A stretch of 64,000 nt of DNA. Source: Gammaproteobacteria bacterium. Lineage in GTDB: Bacteria; Pseudomonadota; Gammaproteobacteria; Eutrophobiales; Eutrophobiaceae. The translations under genes were made by a program, and so were the position numbers. The notes beneath the pieces were generated by a model. The model searched no databases. It had not been told where the DNA came from and worked only from the letters and a program-made list of their open reading frames with translations. The DNA lies in assembly GCA_016193395.1 (NCBI GenBank), contig JACPSH010000015.1, positions 37,858-101,857 on the forward strand. The letters are read 5' to 3'. Positions 3,162-59,742 of this stretch are shown piece by piece; within the stretch, counting starts at the first letter, position 1, and each line of letters opens with the position of its first letter.

Positions 3162-4235
3162 ATGAGAATCAATGCACAGCGCTGGCTGATGACCGCAAGG
3201 GGGGAACCGCTCTCACGCGCTGAATTCAATCCATTGCCGCCCGGCGCCGGTGAGGTGGTCGTCGCCGTGGCCGGCTGCGGCGTATGCCATACCGACCTCG
3301 GCTTTTTCCATAACGGTGTGCGCACCCGCCATGAACTGCCCTTGGCGCTCGGTCACGAGGTCAGCGGCCGCGTGATCGCCTGCGGCGCCGGCACGGAATC
3401 CTGGCGTGATCGTTCCGTGATCATCCCCGCGGTGATCCCCTGTGGCGAATGCGACTGGTGTCAGCGCGGGAAACCGACTATCTGCCCGAACCAGAAGATG
3501 CCGGGCAACGACATGCATGGCGGATTCGGCACCCATATCCTGGTGCCCGCGCGGGGCCTGTGCCCGGTGGACGAAACGCGTCTCGCAAATGCGGGACTGT
3601 CGCTGCCCGATGTCTGTGTCATCGCGGATGCCGTGACCACACCGCTTCAGGCGGTGACCCGATCAGGCGTCGGGCCGGGCGACATCGCCATTGTCATCGG
3701 GATTGGGGGCGTCGGCGGGTTTAGCGCCCAGATTGCCCATGCCTTTGGCGCCAAAGTCGTGGCGATTGACGTGAATCAAGGCAAACTTGACCGCATCAGT
3801 GAACATGGTGCGTCGCTTACCCTGAACTCGGGCAGGATCGGGAGTCGCGAACTGAAACAGGCAATAAGCGCCTTCGCGGAACAGTCCGGGCTGCGCCAGA
3901 CCGAGTGGGTAATCTTCGAGTGCTCCGGAACGGCGGCCGGGCAACAAACGGCATTCGGGCTCATTACCTATGGTTCGACGTTATGCGTGGTCGGATTCAC
4001 CATGGACAGGATCGAGGTTCGTCTTTCCAATCTGATGGCATTCGATGCGCGCGCCGTCGGCAACTGGGGATGTCCTCCCGGATCGTACCCGGCGGCGCTG
4101 GACCTGGTACTGGACGGGCGCATCAAGCTGCTGCCGTTTATAGAGCGCCGCCCGCTGGATGAGATCAACAGGATATTCGAGGAGGCCCATGCGCAGAGCC
4201 CGCACCGAAGGATCGTATTGGTCCCGGAACTCTAG
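3162..4235 (+). CDS. had: Zn-dependent alcohol dehydrogenase (MDR) family; likely 6-hydroxycyclohex-1-ene-1-carbonyl-CoA dehydrogenase (Had-like)
   Basis: Catalytic and structural zinc motifs are present ([18 protein letters not shown], and a [15 protein letters not shown] cysteine cluster). A Rossmann-type GIGGVGG motif is also present. Its position between the CoA ligase and the Oah-type hydrolase matches the T. aromatica dch-had-oah gene context. Confidence 0.65.
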
Positions 4236-22643: not shown

Positions 22644-25178
22644 ATGATGTCAGGCACTTCCTTCACGCTGGAAATCCAGCCCCGGATCCCGACGGAGTTC
22701 GCGCGCCTGGAGGAACTGGCCGCGGATCTGTACTTCAGCTGGGACCGGCACACCCGCGGGCTGTTCTTCTCTCTCGACCCGGAACTCTGGGATCGATGCG
22801 GCCACAATCCGAAGGTATTCCTGCGGCGCGTTTCGCAGAAACGGCTCGAGGAAGCCGCGACCGATCGCGCCCTGCTGGAAGAGTACCAGCGCACCCTGGC
22901 TTACTACGACATCTATCACAAGGAAGGCAAGCGCCCACAACGCAGCCACGGCCTGGACAGCGAGCTGGTCGCTTATTTCTGCGCCGAATTCGGGCTGCAT
23001 GAGAGCCTGCCGATCTATTCCGGGGGTCTCGGCATCCTCGCCGGGGACTTCTGCAAGGCCGCGAGCGATATTGCCCTGCCGTTTGTTGCGGTGGGGATCT
23101 TCTACCGCACCGGCAACCTGCTCCAGACCATCGATGACAGCGGCCACCAGATCCTGCACAACCTGCCGGTGGAACCGGATGACCTGCCGGTACGCCTGAT
23201 CCGCGAGGCGGACGGGCGGGAACTCACGGTGACCGTGGAGTTGGCGCATGGCTCGGTCGTCGTCCGCGTCTGGCAGGTCAAGGCGGGCCATACGTACCTG
23301 TATCTGCTCGATACGGACGTCGAAAGCAACGCGGAGGCCGACCGCGCGATCACGCATAATCTTTATCCCGCCGACAAGGAGATGCGCCTCAGGCAGGAGA
23401 TTGTGCTCGGCATTGGCGGCGTGCGCGCCCTGGAGAAACTGGGGCTCCACCCTGCGATCTGGCACATCAACGAGGGGCATCCCTCATTCCTGCTCGTGGA
23501 ACGCTGGAGTCAACTGGTGCGCGAAGGGATGGAATTCCATGCGGCGCTGGAGATCGTGGCGTCCACGACCATTTTCACGACGCATACGCCGGTCACGGCC
23601 GGCCACGAGGTATACGACCATCATCTCATTCATGCGTACCTTCCAAGCCTGACGCGGGGACTCGGGGTCAGCCAGGAGGAATTCCTGTCGCTCGGCGCCG
23701 TCCAGGACCGGCCGGGATTCAACCTCACCACGTTCGCCTTGCGCTGTTCCCGCTACTACAACGGCGTGAGCCGGATTCACCGGCGCGTGGCCGCGGCGCT
23801 CGAGCGTCACATGTGGCCGGAGATCCCGATCGACGAGAACCCCTTCGGCTACGTCAACAACGGCATTCACGTCCCCACTTTCCTGGCGCGCAACTGGTTC
23901 GGCGTGCTGGAAGGCCCCGGCTGGCATAACGAACTGCTGAACGTCGACTACTGGCGGCGCATCGATGCCATCCCGGATGCCACGTTCTGGAGCGTGCGGC
24001 TCTCCCTCAAGGCGGCGCTGCTGAAGGAATGCCGTCGCGTCGTGGAGTTGCGCTGCCGGCGGCACGGCCACAGCGTGCAGCAGACCGAATGCGCCACGGA
24101 ACAGCTGCGCAACGAGGGCAACATGCTGGTCATCGGATTTGCCCGGCGCTTCGCCACTTACAAGCGCGCGACGCTGCTGTTCGAAAACCCGGACCGGCTC
24201 CACCGGCTCGTGAATAACGAGCAGCGGCCGGTGTTGCTCATCTTCGCCGGCAAGGCGCACCCGAATGACGAGCCGGGCAAGGAGCTGATCGCGCGCATCA
24301 ATGATTTCTCGAAGCGCCCCGGGTTCCAGGGGCGCGTGGTGCTCCTCGAAGGCTACGACCTGTCGCTGGCGCGGCGACTCGCGGCCGGGGTTGACGTATG
24401 GATCAACGTTCCGGAATACCCCATGGAAGCCAGCGGGACATCGGGGATGAAGGCGGCGATCAACGGCGCCATCAACCTCAGCATCATGGACGGCTGGTGG
24501 GCGGACGGGTACAACGGGCACAACGGCTGGGCGCTGCAGCCGCATGCCTCGGAACCGAATCCCGAAGTGCGCAGGCGCCTCGAGGCCCAGGAACTGCTGG
24601 ACACGCTCGAGAACGAGGTCATTCCGCTCTATTTCCGCACGGGCGCGGGCTATCCGGATGAATGGGTGAAGATGGCCAAGGAGTCGATGAAATCGATCAT
24701 CCCTCGCTTCAATTCGGAGCGCATGGTCATGGATTACATCAACCAGTTCTACATCCCGTCTCTGCAGACCTCGCGCCGCCTCCGGGCGGACAACAGCGCC
24801 GCGGCGCTCGAGCTGGCGCAGTGGAAAAAGCGTGTCCGCGCAAGCTGGCCCGGCGTCCAGTTGCATTCTATCGGCGACAGCAAGAAAGCGATCCGGCAGG
24901 GCGAAAACCTGACGGTCAGGGTGGCCGTCCGGTTAAACGGCCTGCAGAGCCAGGATCTCACCGTGGAATGCCTGGTCGGTATTGCCACCGATCACCAGGA
25001 TTTCAAAGTCACCGCCCGCCACCTGCTGCACGCTGTCGGGACGCAGGATCATGAGACGATCTATGAATGCAGCTTCGCGCCGGACCTGTCCGGCCTCGTG
25101 ACCTACAAGCTCCGCGCCTATCCGGGCCACTCGCTGCTTTCCCGGCGCTTCGAGATGGGGTTCATGAAGTGGATCTGA
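22644..25178 (+). CDS. glgP: Alpha-glucan (glycogen) phosphorylase, GT35 bacterial/archaeal long type
   Basis: The 844-aa protein carries the motifs AYFCAEFGLHESLPIYSGGLGILAGD and ASGTSGMKAAINGAINLSIMDGWW (pyridoxal-phosphate region). Confidence 0.9.
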   Translation: MMSGTSFTLEIQPRIPTEFARLEELAADLYFSWDRHTRGLFFSLDPELWDRCGHNPKVFLRRVSQKRLEEAATDRALLEEYQRTLAYYDIYHKEGKRPQRSHGLDSELVAYFCAEFGLHESLPIYSGGLGILAGDFCKAASDIALPFVAVGIFYRTGNLLQTIDDSGHQILHNLPVEPDDLPVRLIREADGRELTVTVELAHGSVVVRVWQVKAGHTYLYLLDTDVESNAEADRAITHNLYPADKEMRLRQEIVLGIGGVRALEKLGLHPAIWHINEGHPSFLLVERWSQLVREGMEFHAALEIVASTTIFTTHTPVTAGHEVYDHHLIHAYLPSLTRGLGVSQEEFLSLGAVQDRPGFNLTTFALRCSRYYNGVSRIHRRVAAALERHMWPEIPIDENPFGYVNNGIHVPTFLARNWFGVLEGPGWHNELLNVDYWRRIDAIPDATFWSVRLSLKAALLKECRRVVELRCRRHGHSVQQTECATEQLRNEGNMLVIGFARRFATYKRATLLFENPDRLHRLVNNEQRPVLLIFAGKAHPNDEPGKELIARINDFSKRPGFQGRVVLLEGYDLSLARRLAAGVDVWINVPEYPMEASGTSGMKAAINGAINLSIMDGWWADGYNGHNGWALQPHASEPNPEVRRRLEAQELLDTLENEVIPLYFRTGAGYPDEWVKMAKESMKSIIPRFNSERMVMDYINQFYIPSLQTSRRLRADNSAAALELAQWKKRVRASWPGVQLHSIGDSKKAIRQGENLTVRVAVRLNGLQSQDLTVECLVGIATDHQDFKVTARHLLHAVGTQDHETIYECSFAPDLSGLVTYKLRAYPGHSLLSRRFEMGFMKWI

Positions 25179-41579: not shown

Positions 41580-43700
41580 ATGAGCGCGACGATCTCCGAT
41601 CTGGAACGCCAGGTCAGCGCCTACCTTCAGCCGGACGAGGTTGAGAAGGTGTTGCGCGCCTACGATTTCGGCGCCAAGGCCCACGAAGGCCAGCACCGGG
41701 TCAGCGGCGAGCCGTACATCCACCATCCGCTGGAAGTGGCGCAGATCCTGGCGGGCATGCACATGGATCACCAGACCCTGATCGCGGCGATCCTGCACGA
41801 TGTCATCGAAGACACCGAGACTGCGAAGCTCGAGATCCAGCGCAAATTCGGCAAGGGCGTCGCGGACCTCGTCGACGGCGTCAGCAAGCTGACCCAAATC
41901 AAGTTCGACTCGCACGCAGAGGCGCAGGCGCAGAACTTCCGCAAGATGCTCATGGCCATGAGCAACGACATCCGCGTGATCCTGGTCAAGCTCGCGGACC
42001 GCGTGCACAACATGCGTACGCTGCGGGCGCTCCCCTCGGAAAAACGGCGGCGCATCGCCCGCGAGACGCTGGAAATCTACGCGCCCATCGCGCAGCGCCT
42101 CGGGATCAATTCGATCCGGCTCGAGCTCGAGGAGCTCGGCTTCGCCACGCTCTATCCGATGCGCTACCGCGTCCTGTCCGAGGAGGTCAGAAAGGCCCGT
42201 GGGCACCGCAAGGAGATCGTCAACCGCATCCGCACCGCCCTCAAGCGGCGGCTGCGGCAGGATAAGGTGCACGCGCAGGTCATCGGGCGCGAGAAGCACC
42301 TGTACGGCATTTATCAGAAGATGATCAGCAAGCGACTGTCCTTCGCCGAGGTGTACGACGTCTACGCGTTCCGCATCATCGTCGACAACGTCGATACCTG
42401 CTACCGCGCCGTGGGCACGGTGCACAACCTGTACAAGCCCGTGCCCGGCAAGTTCAAGGATTACATCGCCATTCCCAAGTCGAACGGCTACCAGGCGCTG
42501 CATACCGTGCTGTTCGGCCCGTTTGGAGTTCCCATCGAGGTCCAGATCCGCAGCCGCGACATGAACGATGTCGCCGAGGCCGGGATCGCCGCTCACTGGC
42601 TGTACAAGTCGGGAAGCGCCAGTGAGCGCAGCGGCGCTCACAAGCGGGCGCGTGAGTGGCTGCGCAGCATCATGGAAATGCAGACCACCGCCGGCAACCC
42701 GCAGGAATTCCTGGAGAACGTGAAAATCGACCTGTTCCCCGAATCCGTCTACGTCTTCACGCCGAAGGGAAAGATCATCGAGTTGCCGCGCAATGCCACC
42801 GCGGTGGATTTCGCGTATGCAATCCACACGGACGTCGGCAACGGCTGCGTGGGCGCGCGCATCAACCGCCGCCTCGCCCCCTTGGGCACGCGGCTTGCGA
42901 CCGGGCAAACAGTCGAGATCGTGACCGCCCCGGGCGCGCATCCCAATCCGGCGTGGCTGAATTTCGCCGTCACCGCCAAGGCCCGGTCCAACATCCGGCA
43001 CTACCTCAAGCACCTGCAGCAAAGGGAGGCCGCGGCGCTCGGCAAGCGGCTGCTGAACCGCGAGTTGCAGATGCACTCGACGGCCTACGACGAGGTGGAT
43101 CGGGACCAGCTGCGCAGGGTGCTCGAGGAATACCATCTCAAGGGCGAGGAAGAGCTGCTGCAGGACGTGGGGCTCGGGAACCGCATGGCGCCGATCATCG
43201 CGCGGCAGCTCCTCGGGCAATGGACCGCGGTCCCGCATGCGAAACCGAACGGAGGGGACGCACAGCCCCTGCTGATTAAGGGTACCGAAGGGCTCGTGAT
43301 TAACTTTCCGAAATGCTGCCGTCCCATTCCCGGCGATCCGATCCTCGGTTTCATGACCGCCGGCCGTGGCATTGTGGTGCACCACCAGTCCTGCCCGAAC
43401 GTCCGCGAATACCGCAATCATCCGGACAAGTGGGTCAACGTCGAATGGGAATCGGATATCCAGGGCAGCTTCCCGACCAACATCCGCCTAGACGTCACCA
43501 ACCAGCGCGGTGTACTGGCGAAGATCGCCGCCGAGATCGCGGACCAGGAGGCGAACATCGTCAACGTGGAGATGCAGGATCGTGACGACCGGTACACGAC
43601 CCTCAAGTTCACGATCGAGGTCCAGGATAGGCAGCACCTCGCCCGCGTCATGCGCCGCATACGCGGGCTCAAGCACGTCTCGCGGATCTCGCGCAGGTAG
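41580..43700 (+). CDS. spoT: Bifunctional (p)ppGpp synthetase/hydrolase (RelA/SpoT homologue)
   Basis: The HD hydrolase domain (HPLEVAQILAGMHMD, ILHDVIEDT) and the synthetase domain (YQALHTVLFGPFGVPIEVQIRS) are present. The TGS and ACT C-terminal regions are also present. The gmk-rpoZ-spoT order matches E. coli. Confidence 0.9.
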   Translation: MSATISDLERQVSAYLQPDEVEKVLRAYDFGAKAHEGQHRVSGEPYIHHPLEVAQILAGMHMDHQTLIAAILHDVIEDTETAKLEIQRKFGKGVADLVDGVSKLTQIKFDSHAEAQAQNFRKMLMAMSNDIRVILVKLADRVHNMRTLRALPSEKRRRIARETLEIYAPIAQRLGINSIRLELEELGFATLYPMRYRVLSEEVRKARGHRKEIVNRIRTALKRRLRQDKVHAQVIGREKHLYGIYQKMISKRLSFAEVYDVYAFRIIVDNVDTCYRAVGTVHNLYKPVPGKFKDYIAIPKSNGYQALHTVLFGPFGVPIEVQIRSRDMNDVAEAGIAAHWLYKSGSASERSGAHKRAREWLRSIMEMQTTAGNPQEFLENVKIDLFPESVYVFTPKGKIIELPRNATAVDFAYAIHTDVGNGCVGARINRRLAPLGTRLATGQTVEIVTAPGAHPNPAWLNFAVTAKARSNIRHYLKHLQQREAAALGKRLLNRELQMHSTAYDEVDRDQLRRVLEEYHLKGEEELLQDVGLGNRMAPIIARQLLGQWTAVPHAKPNGGDAQPLLIKGTEGLVINFPKCCRPIPGDPILGFMTAGRGIVVHHQSCPNVREYRNHPDKWVNVEWESDIQGSFPTNIRLDVTNQRGVLAKIAAEIADQEANIVNVEMQDRDDRYTTLKFTIEVQDRQHLARVMRRIRGLKHVSRISRR

Positions 43701-43709
43701 TCGCGCCCG

Positions 43710-43983
43710 GCAGACAATTGCTCCTGCGATTTCTGCATTTCCGCCATCCCTGGCGGTCATCCCTGGCGGCCATCCCGGGCGGTCATCCCGGGCGGTCGCA
43801 GAAAATTGCTCCTGCATTTTCTGCATTTCCGCCGTCCCTGGCGGTCATCCCGGGCGGTCATCCCTGGCGGTCATCCCGGGCGGTCGCAGAAAATTGCTCC
43901 TGCATTTTCTGCATTCCCGCCATCCCTGGCGGTCGCAGAAAATTGCTCCTGCATTTTCTGCATTCCCGCCATCCCTGGCGGTC
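43710..43983 (+). repeat. Nested tandem-repeat array: four 36-bp units, each followed by 4, 4, 1 and 1 copies of a 13-bp sub-repeat
   Basis: The 36-mer is GCAGA(A/C)AATTGCTCCTGC(G/A)TTTTCTGCATT(T/C)CCGCC. The 13-mer is ATCCC(T/G)GGCGG(T/C)C. The units start at 43710, 43798, 43886 and 43935. The 36-mer contains a 9-bp-stem hairpin, GCAGAAAAT/ATTTTCTGC. The array fills the gap between the spoT stop (43700) and the ridA core. Confidence 0.9.
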
Positions 43984-44363
43984 GGAAAATCATCTCGACC
44001 GACGCGGCGCCCCACGCGATCGGGACCTACTCGCAGGCGGTCCAGGTCGGCAATACCGTTTACCTCTCCGGGCAGATCCCGCTCGACCCCGCGACCATGC
44101 GACTCGTCACCGGCGATGTGCGCGGCCAGATCGACCAGGTATTCCGGAACCTCGCCGCGTTGGCTGGAGCCGCGGGCGGCAGCCTGGCGGATGTCGTCAA
44201 GCTGAATGTCTACCTCACCGATCTCGAATATTTCCCGCTGGTCAATGAGGTCATGGAGCAATACTTCCGGAAGCCCTATCCGGCACGCGCCGCGGTCGGC
44301 GTCGCCGAATTGCCGAAAGGGGCACTGGTCGAGATCGAAGGCATCCTGATGCTGGAGTCCTGA
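43806..44363 (+). CDS. ridA: RidA (YjgF/TdcF) family reactive-intermediate deaminase. The 5' end and start codon are uncertain because the gene abuts a tandem-repeat array.
   Basis: The conserved core [35 protein letters not shown]...[17 protein letters not shown] starts at ~43986. No ATG, GTG or TTG codon occurs at the expected position. The only in-frame upstream start-like codon (TTG at 43806) lies inside the repeat array. Confidence 0.65.
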
Positions 44364-44424
44364 CGGAGTGACGCGGTCCTGAGCACGGCATTTCTGGTAG
44401 GCGTCCCGCGCCGGGGATAGGCCA

Positions 44425-46518
44425 TTGCCCCGGGCCAGGCCACTGTCCGCGCCCACGCGCGATCTGCCCGGCGTCGGACCCAAGATCGAAGACCTGTTGA
44501 AACGCATTGGCATTCACTGCCTGCGCGACCTCTTGTTCCACCTCCCCTACCGCTACGCGGACCGCACGCGCCTGCTGCCGATCGGGGCGCTGCAATCCGG
44601 CGTCGAAGCGCTGACCCAGGGACGGGTGGAACTGTGCCAAGTGCGCTATCCCGGCCGCCGCTCGCTCCTGTGTCGAATCAGCGACGGCACCGGCGCATTG
44701 ACCCTGCGGTTCTTCCACTTCAATCGCGCGCAGGAAGCTCAGCTGCAGCGAGGCGCGCTCATTCGCTGTTATGGGTTGGCGCGCCGTTCCGCAACCACCG
44801 TGGAAATGATCCACCCTGAATACCAGAAGCTGAACGCGGAGCAACCGGCCCCGCTCGAACAGACGCTCACGCCGGTCTATCCCGCGACGGAGGGCCTGAG
44901 CCAGGGCCGGTTACGCAGGTTGACCACGGAAGCGCTGGCGGCCATGCGCTCCGATGCCGGGGGCCTGGAAGAGATCATTCCGGCAAGCCTGCTTCGCGAT
45001 CTGGGGATGCCGCTGCTGCGCGAGGCGCTGGAATACGTCCACCGTCCGCCGCCGGATGCCGATACCGCCCTGATGATGCAGGGAAGGCATCCCTGCCAGC
45101 AGCGGCTCGCCTTCGAGGAACTGCTCGCCCACATCCTGAGCCTGCGCGTGCTGCGATCCGAAGTCCGCGCGCAGAACGCGCCGCCGCTCAATCCGCCGGA
45201 CAACCGCCTGAGCGAAGCGATGATCGGCGCGCTGCCATTCGCATTAACCCTGGCCCAGCAGAGGGTCATGGCGCAGGTGCGCGCCGATCTCTCGGGAAAC
45301 AGGCCGATGATGAGGCTGTTGCAGGGAGACGTTGGATCCGGGAAAACCGTCGTGGCCGCATTCGCGGCGGTGCAGGCCGTAGCGTCCGGTTACCAGGTCG
45401 CGTTCATGGCGCCGACCGAACTGCTCGCCGGGCAGCATTTCCTGAACCTGGGACAATGGCTGTCTGCGCTGGAAATCGAGGTCATCCTGATGTCGGCCCA
45501 GTCCCGCGGCAGCGGGCGCGGCGAATGCCTGGCCCGCATGCGCGACGGGGCGCCGCTCGTCGCGGTCGGCACGCATGCCCTGTTCCAGGAACAGGTGAAA
45601 TTCGGGCGGCTGGGCCTCGTCATCATCGACGAACAGCACCGCTTCGGCGTGCATCAGCGCCTTGCGCTGCTCCGTAAAGGGGAGTCGGGCGAATCATTCC
45701 CCCACCAGCTGATCATGACGGCGACCCCCATTCCGCGCACGCTGGCCATGACGCTGTTCGCGGACCTGGATCTCTCGGTCATCGACGAGCTTCCCCCGGG
45801 GCGGCAGTCGGTACGGACCGTGGTGGTGTCCAATGTCCGCCGTGGCGAGGTGATCGATCGCGTTGCCGAGGCGTGCCGCGCAGGACGGCAGGTGTACTGG
45901 GTATGTCCGCTGATTGCGGAATCGGAGGTCCTGCAATGCCAGGCGGCGATCGAAACGCGCGCAGCCCTGCAGGAACAGTTTCCTCACCTGTCCATCGGCC
46001 TGCTCCACGGACGATTGCAGGCGCGCGAGAAAGAACGCGGGATGCAGCAGTTCCGTTCCGGCGCGCAGGATATTCTGGTGGCCACGACGGTAATCGAGGT
46101 TGGAGTGGACGTCCCGAACGCGAGCCTCATGGTCATCGAAAACGCCGAGCGGCTCGGCCTTGCGCAGCTGCATCAGTTGCGCGGACGGGTCGGACGCGGA
46201 CGAGCGAAGAGCGATTGCGTGTTGCTCTACCAGCCCCCGTTGTCCGGCTCGGCTCGGGCGCGCATGGAAACGATGCGTAGGACCACGGACGGTTTTGCGA
46301 TTGCCGAGAAGGATTTGCAGTTGCGCGGCGCCGGCGAACTCCTGGGCGCGCGTCAGACCGGGCTGCAAGGGATGCGCATTGCCAGTTTCGAGCGCGATGC
46401 CCGGATGATTCCGCGGGCGCGAAAGGTTGCGGACGCGCTGGTCGAGCGGCACCCGCAGGCCGTCGAACCGCTGGTGCGCCGCTGGGTGATGACCGAAGCC
46501 GGGATCGGTTCCGTCTGA
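44425..46518 (+). CDS. recG: ATP-dependent DNA helicase RecG
   Basis: The wedge domain, the helicase motifs (LLQGDVGSGKTVVA, DEQHRFG) and the C-terminal region match RecG. The spoT-(ridA)-recG order is conserved. Confidence 0.9.
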   Translation: MPRARPLSAPTRDLPGVGPKIEDLLKRIGIHCLRDLLFHLPYRYADRTRLLPIGALQSGVEALTQGRVELCQVRYPGRRSLLCRISDGTGALTLRFFHFNRAQEAQLQRGALIRCYGLARRSATTVEMIHPEYQKLNAEQPAPLEQTLTPVYPATEGLSQGRLRRLTTEALAAMRSDAGGLEEIIPASLLRDLGMPLLREALEYVHRPPPDADTALMMQGRHPCQQRLAFEELLAHILSLRVLRSEVRAQNAPPLNPPDNRLSEAMIGALPFALTLAQQRVMAQVRADLSGNRPMMRLLQGDVGSGKTVVAAFAAVQAVASGYQVAFMAPTELLAGQHFLNLGQWLSALEIEVILMSAQSRGSGRGECLARMRDGAPLVAVGTHALFQEQVKFGRLGLVIIDEQHRFGVHQRLALLRKGESGESFPHQLIMTATPIPRTLAMTLFADLDLSVIDELPPGRQSVRTVVVSNVRRGEVIDRVAEACRAGRQVYWVCPLIAESEVLQCQAAIETRAALQEQFPHLSIGLLHGRLQAREKERGMQQFRSGAQDILVATTVIEVGVDVPNASLMVIENAERLGLAQLHQLRGRVGRGRAKSDCVLLYQPPLSGSARARMETMRRTTDGFAIAEKDLQLRGAGELLGARQTGLQGMRIASFERDARMIPRARKVADALVERHPQAVEPLVRRWVMTEAGIGSV

Positions 46519-59297: not shown

Positions 59298-59621
59298 ATG
59301 GTCAAGAAGATCAAGGCTGACGGTTCGCCCTGCCGCAAGTGCGCGGACGTGGAGGAGCGCCTCAAGTCATCGGGCCTTTGGAACGGCATCGATGAGGTCG
59401 TCGTCGCGGATGAACGTGAACCCGACAGCGAAGGGATGCGGCTCGCCCGGCAGTACGGCGTGGATGCGGCCCCGTTTTTCATCGTAGAGGATGGGCCGGG
59501 GCAGGTCCGCATCTATACGGTATTCATGCGCCTGCTCAGGGAAGTGCTGGATAAACCCGTGTCGGAATCGGACGAAGCCGCCGAGATCCTGGATCGTCAC
59601 CCCGGCCTGGACCTGCTATGA
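59298..59621 (+). CDS. Small thioredoxin/glutaredoxin-like protein with CxxC (putative reductant partner of CysH)
   Basis: MVKKIKADGSPCRKCADVEERLK... carries a CxxC motif near the N-terminus. ...DAAPFFIVEDGPGQVRIY... is glutaredoxin-like. ORF 59208..59621 was trimmed to the ATG at 59298, just after the cysH stop. Confidence 0.5.
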   Translation: MVKKIKADGSPCRKCADVEERLKSSGLWNGIDEVVVADEREPDSEGMRLARQYGVDAAPFFIVEDGPGQVRIYTVFMRLLREVLDKPVSESDEAAEILDRHPGLDLL

Positions 59622-59628
59622 AAGTGCA

Positions 59629-59742
59629 AAGTGGAAAGTTGAAAGTGTAAAGAAAAGTTCCCGCTCCCGGCACTGGCGAGTCCGCTCATCGAAGCTGAGA
59701 TTTCAGGCTCCCGCTTTTCCCTTTTTACTTTACACTTTCCAC

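Follow-up and report, generated by a model that had tools for sequence, protein, structure and literature searches.

We analyzed a 64,000-nt stretch of DNA from a Gammaproteobacteria bacterium of the Eutrophobiaceae (GenBank assembly GCA_016193395.1, contig JACPSH010000015.1, positions 37,858 to 101,857 of the forward strand; this whole stretch is called the window, and positions below are given in its coordinates). In the window, a 274-nt tandem array of hairpin repeats occupies the gap between the spoT and ridA genes. We conclude, at a probability of about 0.75, that this array is a local cluster of a family of small non-coding hairpin repeats, which is dispersed in gammaproteobacterial intergenic DNA and resembles in its behavior the repetitive extragenic palindromic (REP) sequences and bacterial interspersed mosaic elements (BIMEs) of Enterobacteria. 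Most likely, the array is selfish or structural DNA of a REP-like kind rather than a switch dedicated to ridA.

The array is built from two-hairpin units

An initial annotation made from the sequence described the array as four 36-mer hairpin units followed by 4, 4, 1, and 1 copies of a 13-mer, and these counts and coordinates were confirmed (4 x 36 + 10 x 13 = 274 nt). Exact copies of the 27-mer GCAGAAAATTGCTCCTGCATTTTCTGC, which forms most of the 36-mer, begin at 43798, 43886, and 43935, and a copy with three mismatches begins at 43710; no other match occurs within 64 kb, and shuffled sequences are expected to contain none. Ten matches to the 13-mer ATCCCKGGCGGTC fall within 43746-43983, in the same four groups, and one extra, unrelated match with one mismatch lies at 23706, compared with a chance expectation of ~0.4. 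Tandem Repeats Finder (TRF) reported periods of 13, 26, 49, and 88 nt.

The 36-mer does contain a real hairpin but is itself a composite, consisting of this hairpin (A, 27 nt) and the sequence ATTYCCGCC, whose CCGCC is the 5' arm of a second hairpin (B, 22 nt; CCGCC, loop, GGCGG). The first 13-mer of each group supplies the loop and 3' arm of hairpin B. Because CCGCC pairs with the GGCGG of this first 13-mer, each unit consists of hairpin A and a second hairpin B, and the array is better parsed into 49-nt units of A (27 nt) plus B (22 nt), in agreement with the period of 49 of units 3 and 4. Each supernumerary 13-mer is the loop and 3' arm of hairpin B without the 5' arm. The parts of the array are as follows.

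43710-43983, + strand: whole array, 274 nt, four two-hairpin units plus six supernumerary 13-mers
43710-43736, + strand: hairpin A copy 1, three substitutions, stem in a shifted register
43737-43758, + strand: hairpin B copy 1, ATTTCCGCC + ATCCCTGGCGGTC
43759-43797, + strand: three supernumerary 13-mers after unit 1
43798-43824, + strand: hairpin A copy 2, canonical 27-mer
43825-43846, + strand: hairpin B copy 2
43847-43885, + strand: three supernumerary 13-mers after unit 2
43886-43934, + strand: unit 3, complete 49 nt (A + B), 79 bits with covariance model R1
43935-43983, + strand: unit 4, complete 49 nt (A + B)

All four units are direct repeats. The 49-nt unit is predicted to form two hairpins (-23.9 kcal/mol, z = -6.0), with the complementary strand nearly as stable, and the whole array folds more stably than shuffled sequences (z = -6.6). 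In unit 1, two pairs of the canonical 9-bp register of hairpin A are broken, yet the sequence folds in a shifted register. The TRF row of period 26, which covers the 13-mers of unit 2 (43835-43885, 2.0 copies), has 100% matches, and the row of period 49 across units 3 and 4 has 98% matches; these high values point to recent events.

Neither unique spacers nor a U-tract occurs in the array, and we therefore agree with the initial annotation that it is not CRISPR-like and not a rho-independent terminator. The sequence between hairpin A copies is itself repeat, which rules out a CRISPR array, and the two matches returned by a terminator scanner are spurious half-stems. In a consensus scan of 43300-44600, no promoter-like sites were found on either strand, and these two + strand matches were the only terminator-like ones. 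Nothing across the whole window reached an Rfam gathering score, and a permissive Rfam scan of the array gave chance-level matches only.

Six near-identical short-read contigs from the Logan collection (L117-L122) all break inside the array. L122, on the spoT side, ends 39 nt into it and L117-L121 start inside the last unit, and thus both edges of the array are independently confirmed and its interior is not. A scan of Joint Genome Institute (JGI) metagenomes for the spoT-array-ridA locus gave no match.

The unit belongs to a family dispersed among Gammaproteobacteria

In an exact-match scan of one genome per species, we found the 27-mer at at least 116 loci (L001-L116, the matches listed, a lower bound). 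By their record titles, these loci represent at least 71 species-level genomes and at least 25 genera, almost all of them Gammaproteobacteria. The genera among the matches listed include Oceanimonas, Zobellella, Salinicola, Marinobacterium, Nitrincola, Motiliproteus, Cellvibrio, Thalassocella, Pseudohongiella, Pseudomonas, Halopseudomonas, Alteromonas, Rheinheimera, Kangiella, Endozoicomonas, Sedimenticola, and Methylobacter, and many gammaproteobacterial metagenome-assembled genomes (MAGs) and one betaproteobacterial MAG carry the 27-mer as well; matches in this set often lie at contig ends. The family is often multi-copy, with 3-9 loci in several genomes, two or more in others, and at least nine in one MAG. 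Closed genomes that contain it include OZ241890.1, NZ_OZ246016.1, and OZ253535.1. The genomes that bear it belong to several orders and range in G+C content from ~40% to 65%. Searches of viral contigs, plasmids, and 5,426 E. coli genomes yielded no copy of the unit. Its sequence strings had no match in the literature searched, and keyword searches gave nothing relevant; the family is apparently undescribed and appears to be missing from Rfam.

One listed match (L017; NZ_BAAAHF010000150.1, 685 nt) is filed under Streptomyces malaysiensis. This record is a 23S-5S-tRNA segment in which the flanks of the repeat are identical to those in Zobellella iuensis (L030), and by sequence it looks like contamination of the S. 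malaysiensis assembly.

Loops are conserved and stems covary

At nearly all listed loci, the right-hand neighbor of the 27-mer is hairpin B, either as AYTTCCGCCATCCNTGGCGGTCG or as a variant with a different self-complementary stem. Among 47 distinct units, the 5-6 bp stem of hairpin B showed 47 double-sided changes compared with 11.3 in shuffled controls, none of which (0 of 500) reached the observed value, and the loop RTCCNTG was nearly invariant. Variation in the stem of hairpin A was read from copies found with covariance model R1 and not by exact match; within the window, this model matched only the array. Hairpin A has a 9-11 bp stem and a conserved loop, TGCTCC(N)TGC, and its stem showed 32 compensatory changes, 3 wobble pairs, and 10 broken pairs, with the loop kept. 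Compensating stems of hairpin A include GCGGAAAAC/GTTTTCCGC, GCAAAAAAT/ATTTTTTGC, GCAGATGGC/GCCATCTGC, and GCAGATTTC/GAAATCTGC. In 86 distinct units from L001-L116, non-Watson-Crick pairs in the stem of hairpin B comprised 20 A.C or C.A pairs versus 3 G.T or T.G pairs, counted over events that are not independent, and this 20:3 skew hints that pairing may be maintained on the strand with GGA loops. The unit has a variable left flank and ends on the right in GGTCG or GGTCA.

Placement, nesting, and mosaics in other genomes

By crude gene calls, 21 of the gaps that house the family are convergent, 14 and 16 are tandem (by orientation), and 4 are divergent. Unit orientation is balanced relative to flanking genes, most copies lie near gene 3' ends, and many copies in other genomes lie directly downstream of an intrinsic terminator. 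Beside the 27-mer, no recurrent adjacent protein family was found among the at least 116 loci, which rules out the unit as the end of an insertion sequence (IS) or of a larger coding mobile element. Copies in the 23S-5S spacer, sense to the rRNA, occur in Oceanimonas, Zobellella, and Motiliproteus (L001, L017, L030, L054, L040, L098, and L100), and the unit must therefore belong to the rRNA precursor there.

Tandem arrays of the 49-mer occur at L005, L014, and L026. At an unrelated locus between convergent genes, JGI contig L132 carries one hairpin A, six tandem 13-mers, and then a nested pair of units. These tandems and the 13-mer amplification show that the two special-looking features of the window array recur across the family. 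Units are also nested: in L004, L071, L094, and L105, a complete unit separates the 5' arm of another B hairpin from its loop.

In Pseudomonas-type MAGs, a far larger palindrome carries the A + B unit at its apex, in either orientation (L009, L013, L034, L061, L062, L067, L072, L078, L086, L097, and L102; ~110 nt to either side of the 27-mer). The core of this palindrome is conserved (...GAC ACGC..TACATCCCTGTA..CTCG.CGATG...), and its outer arms of 20-30 bp are near-fully paired in predicted folds and differ between loci even within one genome. A recurrent left junction consists of the T-run of a terminator, AT, a small hairpin with the loop CA(N)GGAYG, and hairpin A (L002, L011, L015, L046, L093, L095, L103, and L105), and further modules, for example TATGCCGCG..GCGCAGGATGCGCAGGAGCGGCG, recur across genera at left flanks. 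Because this junction and these modules recur, the family, like BIMEs, combines several hairpin modules in a mosaic. In one gammaproteobacterial MAG (L033:800-1400), three copies of the 27-mer lie inside a longer tandem repeat of ~200-300 nt.

No target-site duplication was detected around the window array, with 184 of 500 shuffles equaling or exceeding the observed similarity of the left and right flanks, and the left flanks of the listed loci contain no conserved target tetranucleotide.

The array edge at ridA and related loci

The genes and the junction that surround the array are listed here.

41580-43700, + strand: spoT, 706 aa, read as an open reading frame (ORF) with an ATG start; exact protein on Logan contig L122
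43983-43984, + strand: junction of a 54-nt deletion relative to L117-L121; lost: AGGCCCGTTGTCAGTAGCCCGACCGCCCGCGATAATTACACCCCGCC ATG ACC C (promoter-like motif and ridA start)
43983-44363, + strand: ridA without a start codon, from codon 3 (CGG AAA ATC ATC...)
44425-46518, + strand: recG, 697 aa, downstream context

The spoT product, as encoded on L122, has Pfam matches to RelA_SpoT, HD, TGS, and ACT. Its stop codon, TAG, occupies 43698-43700, and the array starts after nine further bases. At the other edge, the conserved RidA codons, (R)KIISTDAAP, begin at 43983, the final base of the array.

Contigs L117-L121, with which the window is otherwise 99.92-99.97% identical, encode a 128-aa RidA (MTRKIIST...; P0001) that is 100% identical to the window RidA from residue 3 on. 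These five contigs read ...GGCGGTC, AGGCCCGTTGTCAGTAGCCCGACCGCCCGCGATAATTACACCCCGCC, ATG ACC CGG AAA, with 47 nt between the array and the ATG. In this intact allele, a promoter-like TTGTCA-N17-GATAAT matches at 10 of 12 positions and ends 11 nt before the ridA ATG. The corresponding junction in the window reads GGCGGTC/GGAAAATC, with 54 nt absent relative to L117:29-82 and a junction homology of only 1 nt. As a consequence, the array is fused to codon 3 of ridA, and no ATG, GTG, or TTG occurs near the N-terminus. The only in-frame canonical start for ridA is a TTG at 43806, inside the array, which would give a 185-aa ORF. An array-encoded N-terminal extension of this kind was rejected: the 120 best RidA homologues are almost all 127-160 aa, the top matches cover 66-69% of the 185-aa ORF, and five inspected homologues start M-x-R/K about two residues before IISTD. 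Judged from these sequences, either a deletion bordering the repeat would have inactivated ridA here or the assembly would be wrong at the junction.

In L123 (RidA 87% identical), the nearest relative whose gap is sequenced, 20 nt without an array separate spoT and ridA. L127 has 38 nt and no repeat between the upstream gene and ridA, and in a further relative, L134, the gap measures 108 nt and likewise lacks the repeat. In L133 (RidA 80% identical), hairpin A is present in the same gap in reversed orientation, directly upstream of TTGTCA-N17-GATAAT and the ridA ATG (L133:1-80), and the start of the contig falls inside the repeat. The presence of the array at spoT-ridA is thus lineage-specific and its orientation is not conserved, which speaks against strand-specific control of ridA.

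The spoT gene, the array, and ridA share one reading frame (43701-44363 for the array and ridA), which is interrupted by nothing but the TAG of spoT. Across the array, all three frames of the plus strand are open, and the shared frame is probably a by-product of repeat composition. A SpoT-RidA read-through fusion was dropped as a candidate for the same reason, as the open frame is uninformative. Elsewhere in the window, a heptamer run at a gene boundary, GAAAGTG x 4.7 (59620-59652, TRF score 45), starts at an ATG and includes a stop region that looks in-frame.

Comparison with known repeats and regulators

The family shares several properties with the REP sequences and BIMEs of Enterobacteria (palindromic unit, or PU, elements; BIME-2). 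Like them, it consists of short extragenic imperfect palindromes, and both hairpin A (27 nt) and hairpin B (22 nt) fall in the 20-40 nt size range of a REP palindrome. Like them, it occupies convergent and intra-operon gaps and avoids divergent promoter gaps, and it forms tandem clusters of varying copy number that are mosaic with other short motifs. BIMEs, however, alternate palindromic units with fixed linkers, whereas the units here are in direct orientation and are linked by runs of 13-mers. Each unit here also combines two distinct hairpins, whose loops are conserved and whose stems covary freely. Moreover, a REP consensus is lineage-specific, whereas the same 27-mer occurs across orders here and in none of the 5,426 E. 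coli genomes, and among 104 distinct unit sequences neither a GTAG nor a CGTC head is conserved at either end. The resemblance to BIMEs is functional and organizational only.

REPINs and their RAYTs in Pseudomonas and Enterobacteria provide a second comparison, as REPINs likewise are tiny, non-autonomous, multi-copy, intergenic hairpins with compensatory variation. REPINs are inverted REP doublets inherited vertically together with a single cognate RAYT, and each RAYT gene has REPs of its own on either side (PMC3116915; PMC5581495; PMC3686654). The inverted doublet is absent here, where the units are direct and identical copies occur in at least 71 species. In a motif scan of the fetched loci and the window, only L115 and L069 contained RAYT-like ORFs. 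The ORF of L115 (~3250-3781, reverse strand; 177 aa, HLHALW ... YIHYNPVKHG) has GTAGGTTGGGGTGAGG-type palindromes on both sides and forms a classical REP-RAYT pair. Within these loci and the window, an identity of the unit as a RAYT-linked REP was rejected, as this one clear RAYT is flanked by a different, GTAG-headed REP of the GTAGGTTGGGGTGAGG type. Nor is the unit a miniature inverted-repeat transposable element (MITE), as its ends, GCAGAAAAT... and ...GGCGGTC, are not mutual inverted repeats and no target-site duplication accompanies them.

The BOX elements of pneumococcus have the structure boxA-boxB(n)-boxC. These elements are likewise modular, dispersed, intergenic, and non-coding, form stable hairpins, and carry one module in variable tandem number, but their sequence and host are unrelated, and the variable module here is 13 nt and corresponds to half a hairpin. 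Some mobile DNA targets hairpins, including single-stranded DNA transposons of the IS200/IS605 type with their palindrome-associated transposable element (PATE) derivatives, and IS1397 and ISKpn1, which are specific for REP loops. Conserved loops combined with variable stems, as seen here, are what a structure-reading enzyme of this kind would recognize, and units inserted inside B hairpins and at the apex of larger palindromes are a further likeness to hairpin-targeting mobile DNA. In contrast to those elements, no transposase, conserved target tetranucleotide, or target-site duplication was found here, and any such mechanism would be one proposed from the layout of the copies. Finally, the minus strand of the array resembles the regulatory RNAs CsrB, RsmY, and RsmZ in having many closely spaced GGA motifs in loops, but unlike them the array has no predicted transcription signals, scores under the Rfam thresholds, and belongs to a dispersed and orientation-independent family.

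Alternative explanations

The initial annotation proposed that the array is a contingency locus, a variable-number tandem repeat (VNTR), or a riboregulatory leader, such that slippage of the 13-mers or folding of the array in the ridA 5' leader would tune ridA. We find a contingency or riboregulatory role unsupported and very unlikely. Slippage as such is a reasonable inference, since 13-mer counts differ between units and L132 has six copies, and the fold of the array exceeds that of shuffled sequences (z = -6.6). In the intact allele, however, the promoter-like site lies between the array and the ATG, and the array is thus neither a ridA 5' leader nor a phase-variable promoter spacer; the tracts of simple sequence repeat (SSR) contingency loci lie in an ORF, in the spacer separating the -35 and -10 boxes, or in a promoter-gene interval, whereas here both the promoter-like site and the ATG are downstream of the array. 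The promoter-like motif is also kept in L133, where the repeat is inverted, and L123 and L127 manage without an array. Dispersal of the unit in at least 71 species-level genomes, in either orientation to genes and without an Rfam match, speaks against any locus-specific regulatory device. In relatives, presence and orientation of the repeat vary (absent in L123 and L127, reversed in L133), and all near-identical contigs break inside the array. The initial annotation foresaw a reclassification if the units belonged to a known IS or MITE terminal repeat; the unit is essentially a dispersed, mobile-type repeat, although no family name was found for it. Another reading, in which assembly or polishing created the 4, 4, 1, 1 layout, the 54-nt deletion, or both, seems unlikely to us. 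All six near-identical short-read contigs stop within the array, the deletion is present in the window only, with an intact leader and ATG in five independent contigs, and the JGI metagenomes gave no match for the locus; against an artefact, both edges of the array are independently confirmed, the junction homology of 1 nt is something that a de Bruijn graph cannot invent, and similar arrays have been formed by the family elsewhere. In any case, this reading touches only details of the array and not its existence or nature.

Two explanations invoke a function for an RNA copy of the array. It is improbable that the array is a domesticated, selected cis-acting RNA of the spoT transcript that protects its 3' end or insulates ridA-recG from read-through. 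Such a role would fit the position of the array directly after the spoT stop codon, the very stable sense-strand hairpins in predicted folds, and the preference of the family for gene 3' ends, and the sense copies in 23S-5S spacers show that the unit is compatible with transcription. The L123 gap, however, is only 20 nt and has no hairpins, the orientation is reversed in L133, and many copies elsewhere lie past an intrinsic terminator and so are mostly untranscribed. That the minus strand encodes an RNA that titrates CsrA or RsmA is highly improbable, even though its loops resemble CsrA/RsmA sites. On this strand, the A loops read GCAGGAGCA and the B loops and 13-mers read CAGGGAUG or CCGGGAUG (CANGGAYG), giving 14 GGA motifs in 274 nt, and these loops match the CANGGANG and CAGGA sequences that we take, from the SELEX and RsmE consensus, to be CsrA site types. 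The mismatches in B stems are mostly G.U on the minus strand (20 versus 3), and weak minus-strand matches to RsmY were found (13.7 and 12 bits, E = 0.5-1.6). These RsmY scores, however, are at chance level and far under the gathering score of 57 bits, and the 20:3 count is not one of independent events. Furthermore, the consensus scan gave no promoter-like site on either strand and terminator-like matches only on the + strand; a minus-strand transcript would need to start inside ridA; the orientation of the family relative to transcription is random, with L133 opposite; and nine composite loci from other genomes had no Csr or Rsm match in Rfam.

Our preferred reading of the array as a REP/BIME-like cluster also has evidence against it. 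Only a single place with the unit was found within the 64 kb of the source genome that were searched, and both the 4, 4, 1, 1 layout and the deletion rest on one assembly. Exact 27/27 identity across orders is unusual for REP or REPIN families and points either to selection on the sequence or to horizontal spread by some vehicle. The motif scan of the fetched loci and the window identified no mobilizing enzyme, and there is neither a target-site duplication nor a pair of empty and filled sites precise enough to define the ends of the element.

A model for the origin of the array and its implications

In the model that we favor for this REP/BIME-like cluster, one unit would have entered a spoT-ridA gap that was originally ~20-40 nt and would then have multiplied there through replication slippage or unequal recombination. 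This amplification would have involved segments of three lengths: 13 nt (the loop and 3' arm of hairpin B), 49 nt (the unit), and 88 nt (a block of a unit plus 13-mers). We infer that the family is or was mobile and prefers hairpin loops and terminator-proximal sites, and that the array has no dedicated regulatory role. At most, the array may act in the manner of REP/BIME clusters, as a stable fold in the spoT 3' trailer by which read-through or decay is buffered, and the inserted right-hand segment could contribute to the -35 element of the ridA promoter-like site. The array would also be a hotspot of structural instability, with the deletion of the ridA promoter-like site and ATG as a probable example.

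Nesting and loop conservation suggest that a structure-reading enzyme may recognize the unit. We propose, tentatively and at less than even odds, that the 49-nt unit is an undescribed miniature mobile element of Gammaproteobacteria, which would be recognized by its loops (TGCTCCNTGC and RTCCNTG) and not its stems, would insert into hairpin loops, and would spread horizontally. Its targets would include its own B hairpin loops, the apex of long palindromes, and sites beside terminators, and its mobilizer would not be encoded nearby. A less likely added layer is that the complementary strand of such an element plants paired GGA hairpins of the CsrA/RsmA type at its landing sites.

These results place the significance of the array in the repeat family, not at spoT-ridA itself. 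Reading the array as a regulator of the stringent-response neighborhood would be a mistake; rather, it is a repeat that breaks short-read assemblies and that may have caused or masked the loss of the ridA start codon. As such, it is a new entry, with unusual properties, in the known class of dispersed intergenic palindromic repeats. Its identity across orders, covarying double hairpins with conserved loops, self-nesting, and amplification of half a hairpin depart from what is expected of REP sequences and REPINs. The family would be a useful marker for assembly breaks and for annotation in marine and groundwater Gammaproteobacteria, and identification of the agent that copies it could reveal a new route by which miniature elements are mobilized.

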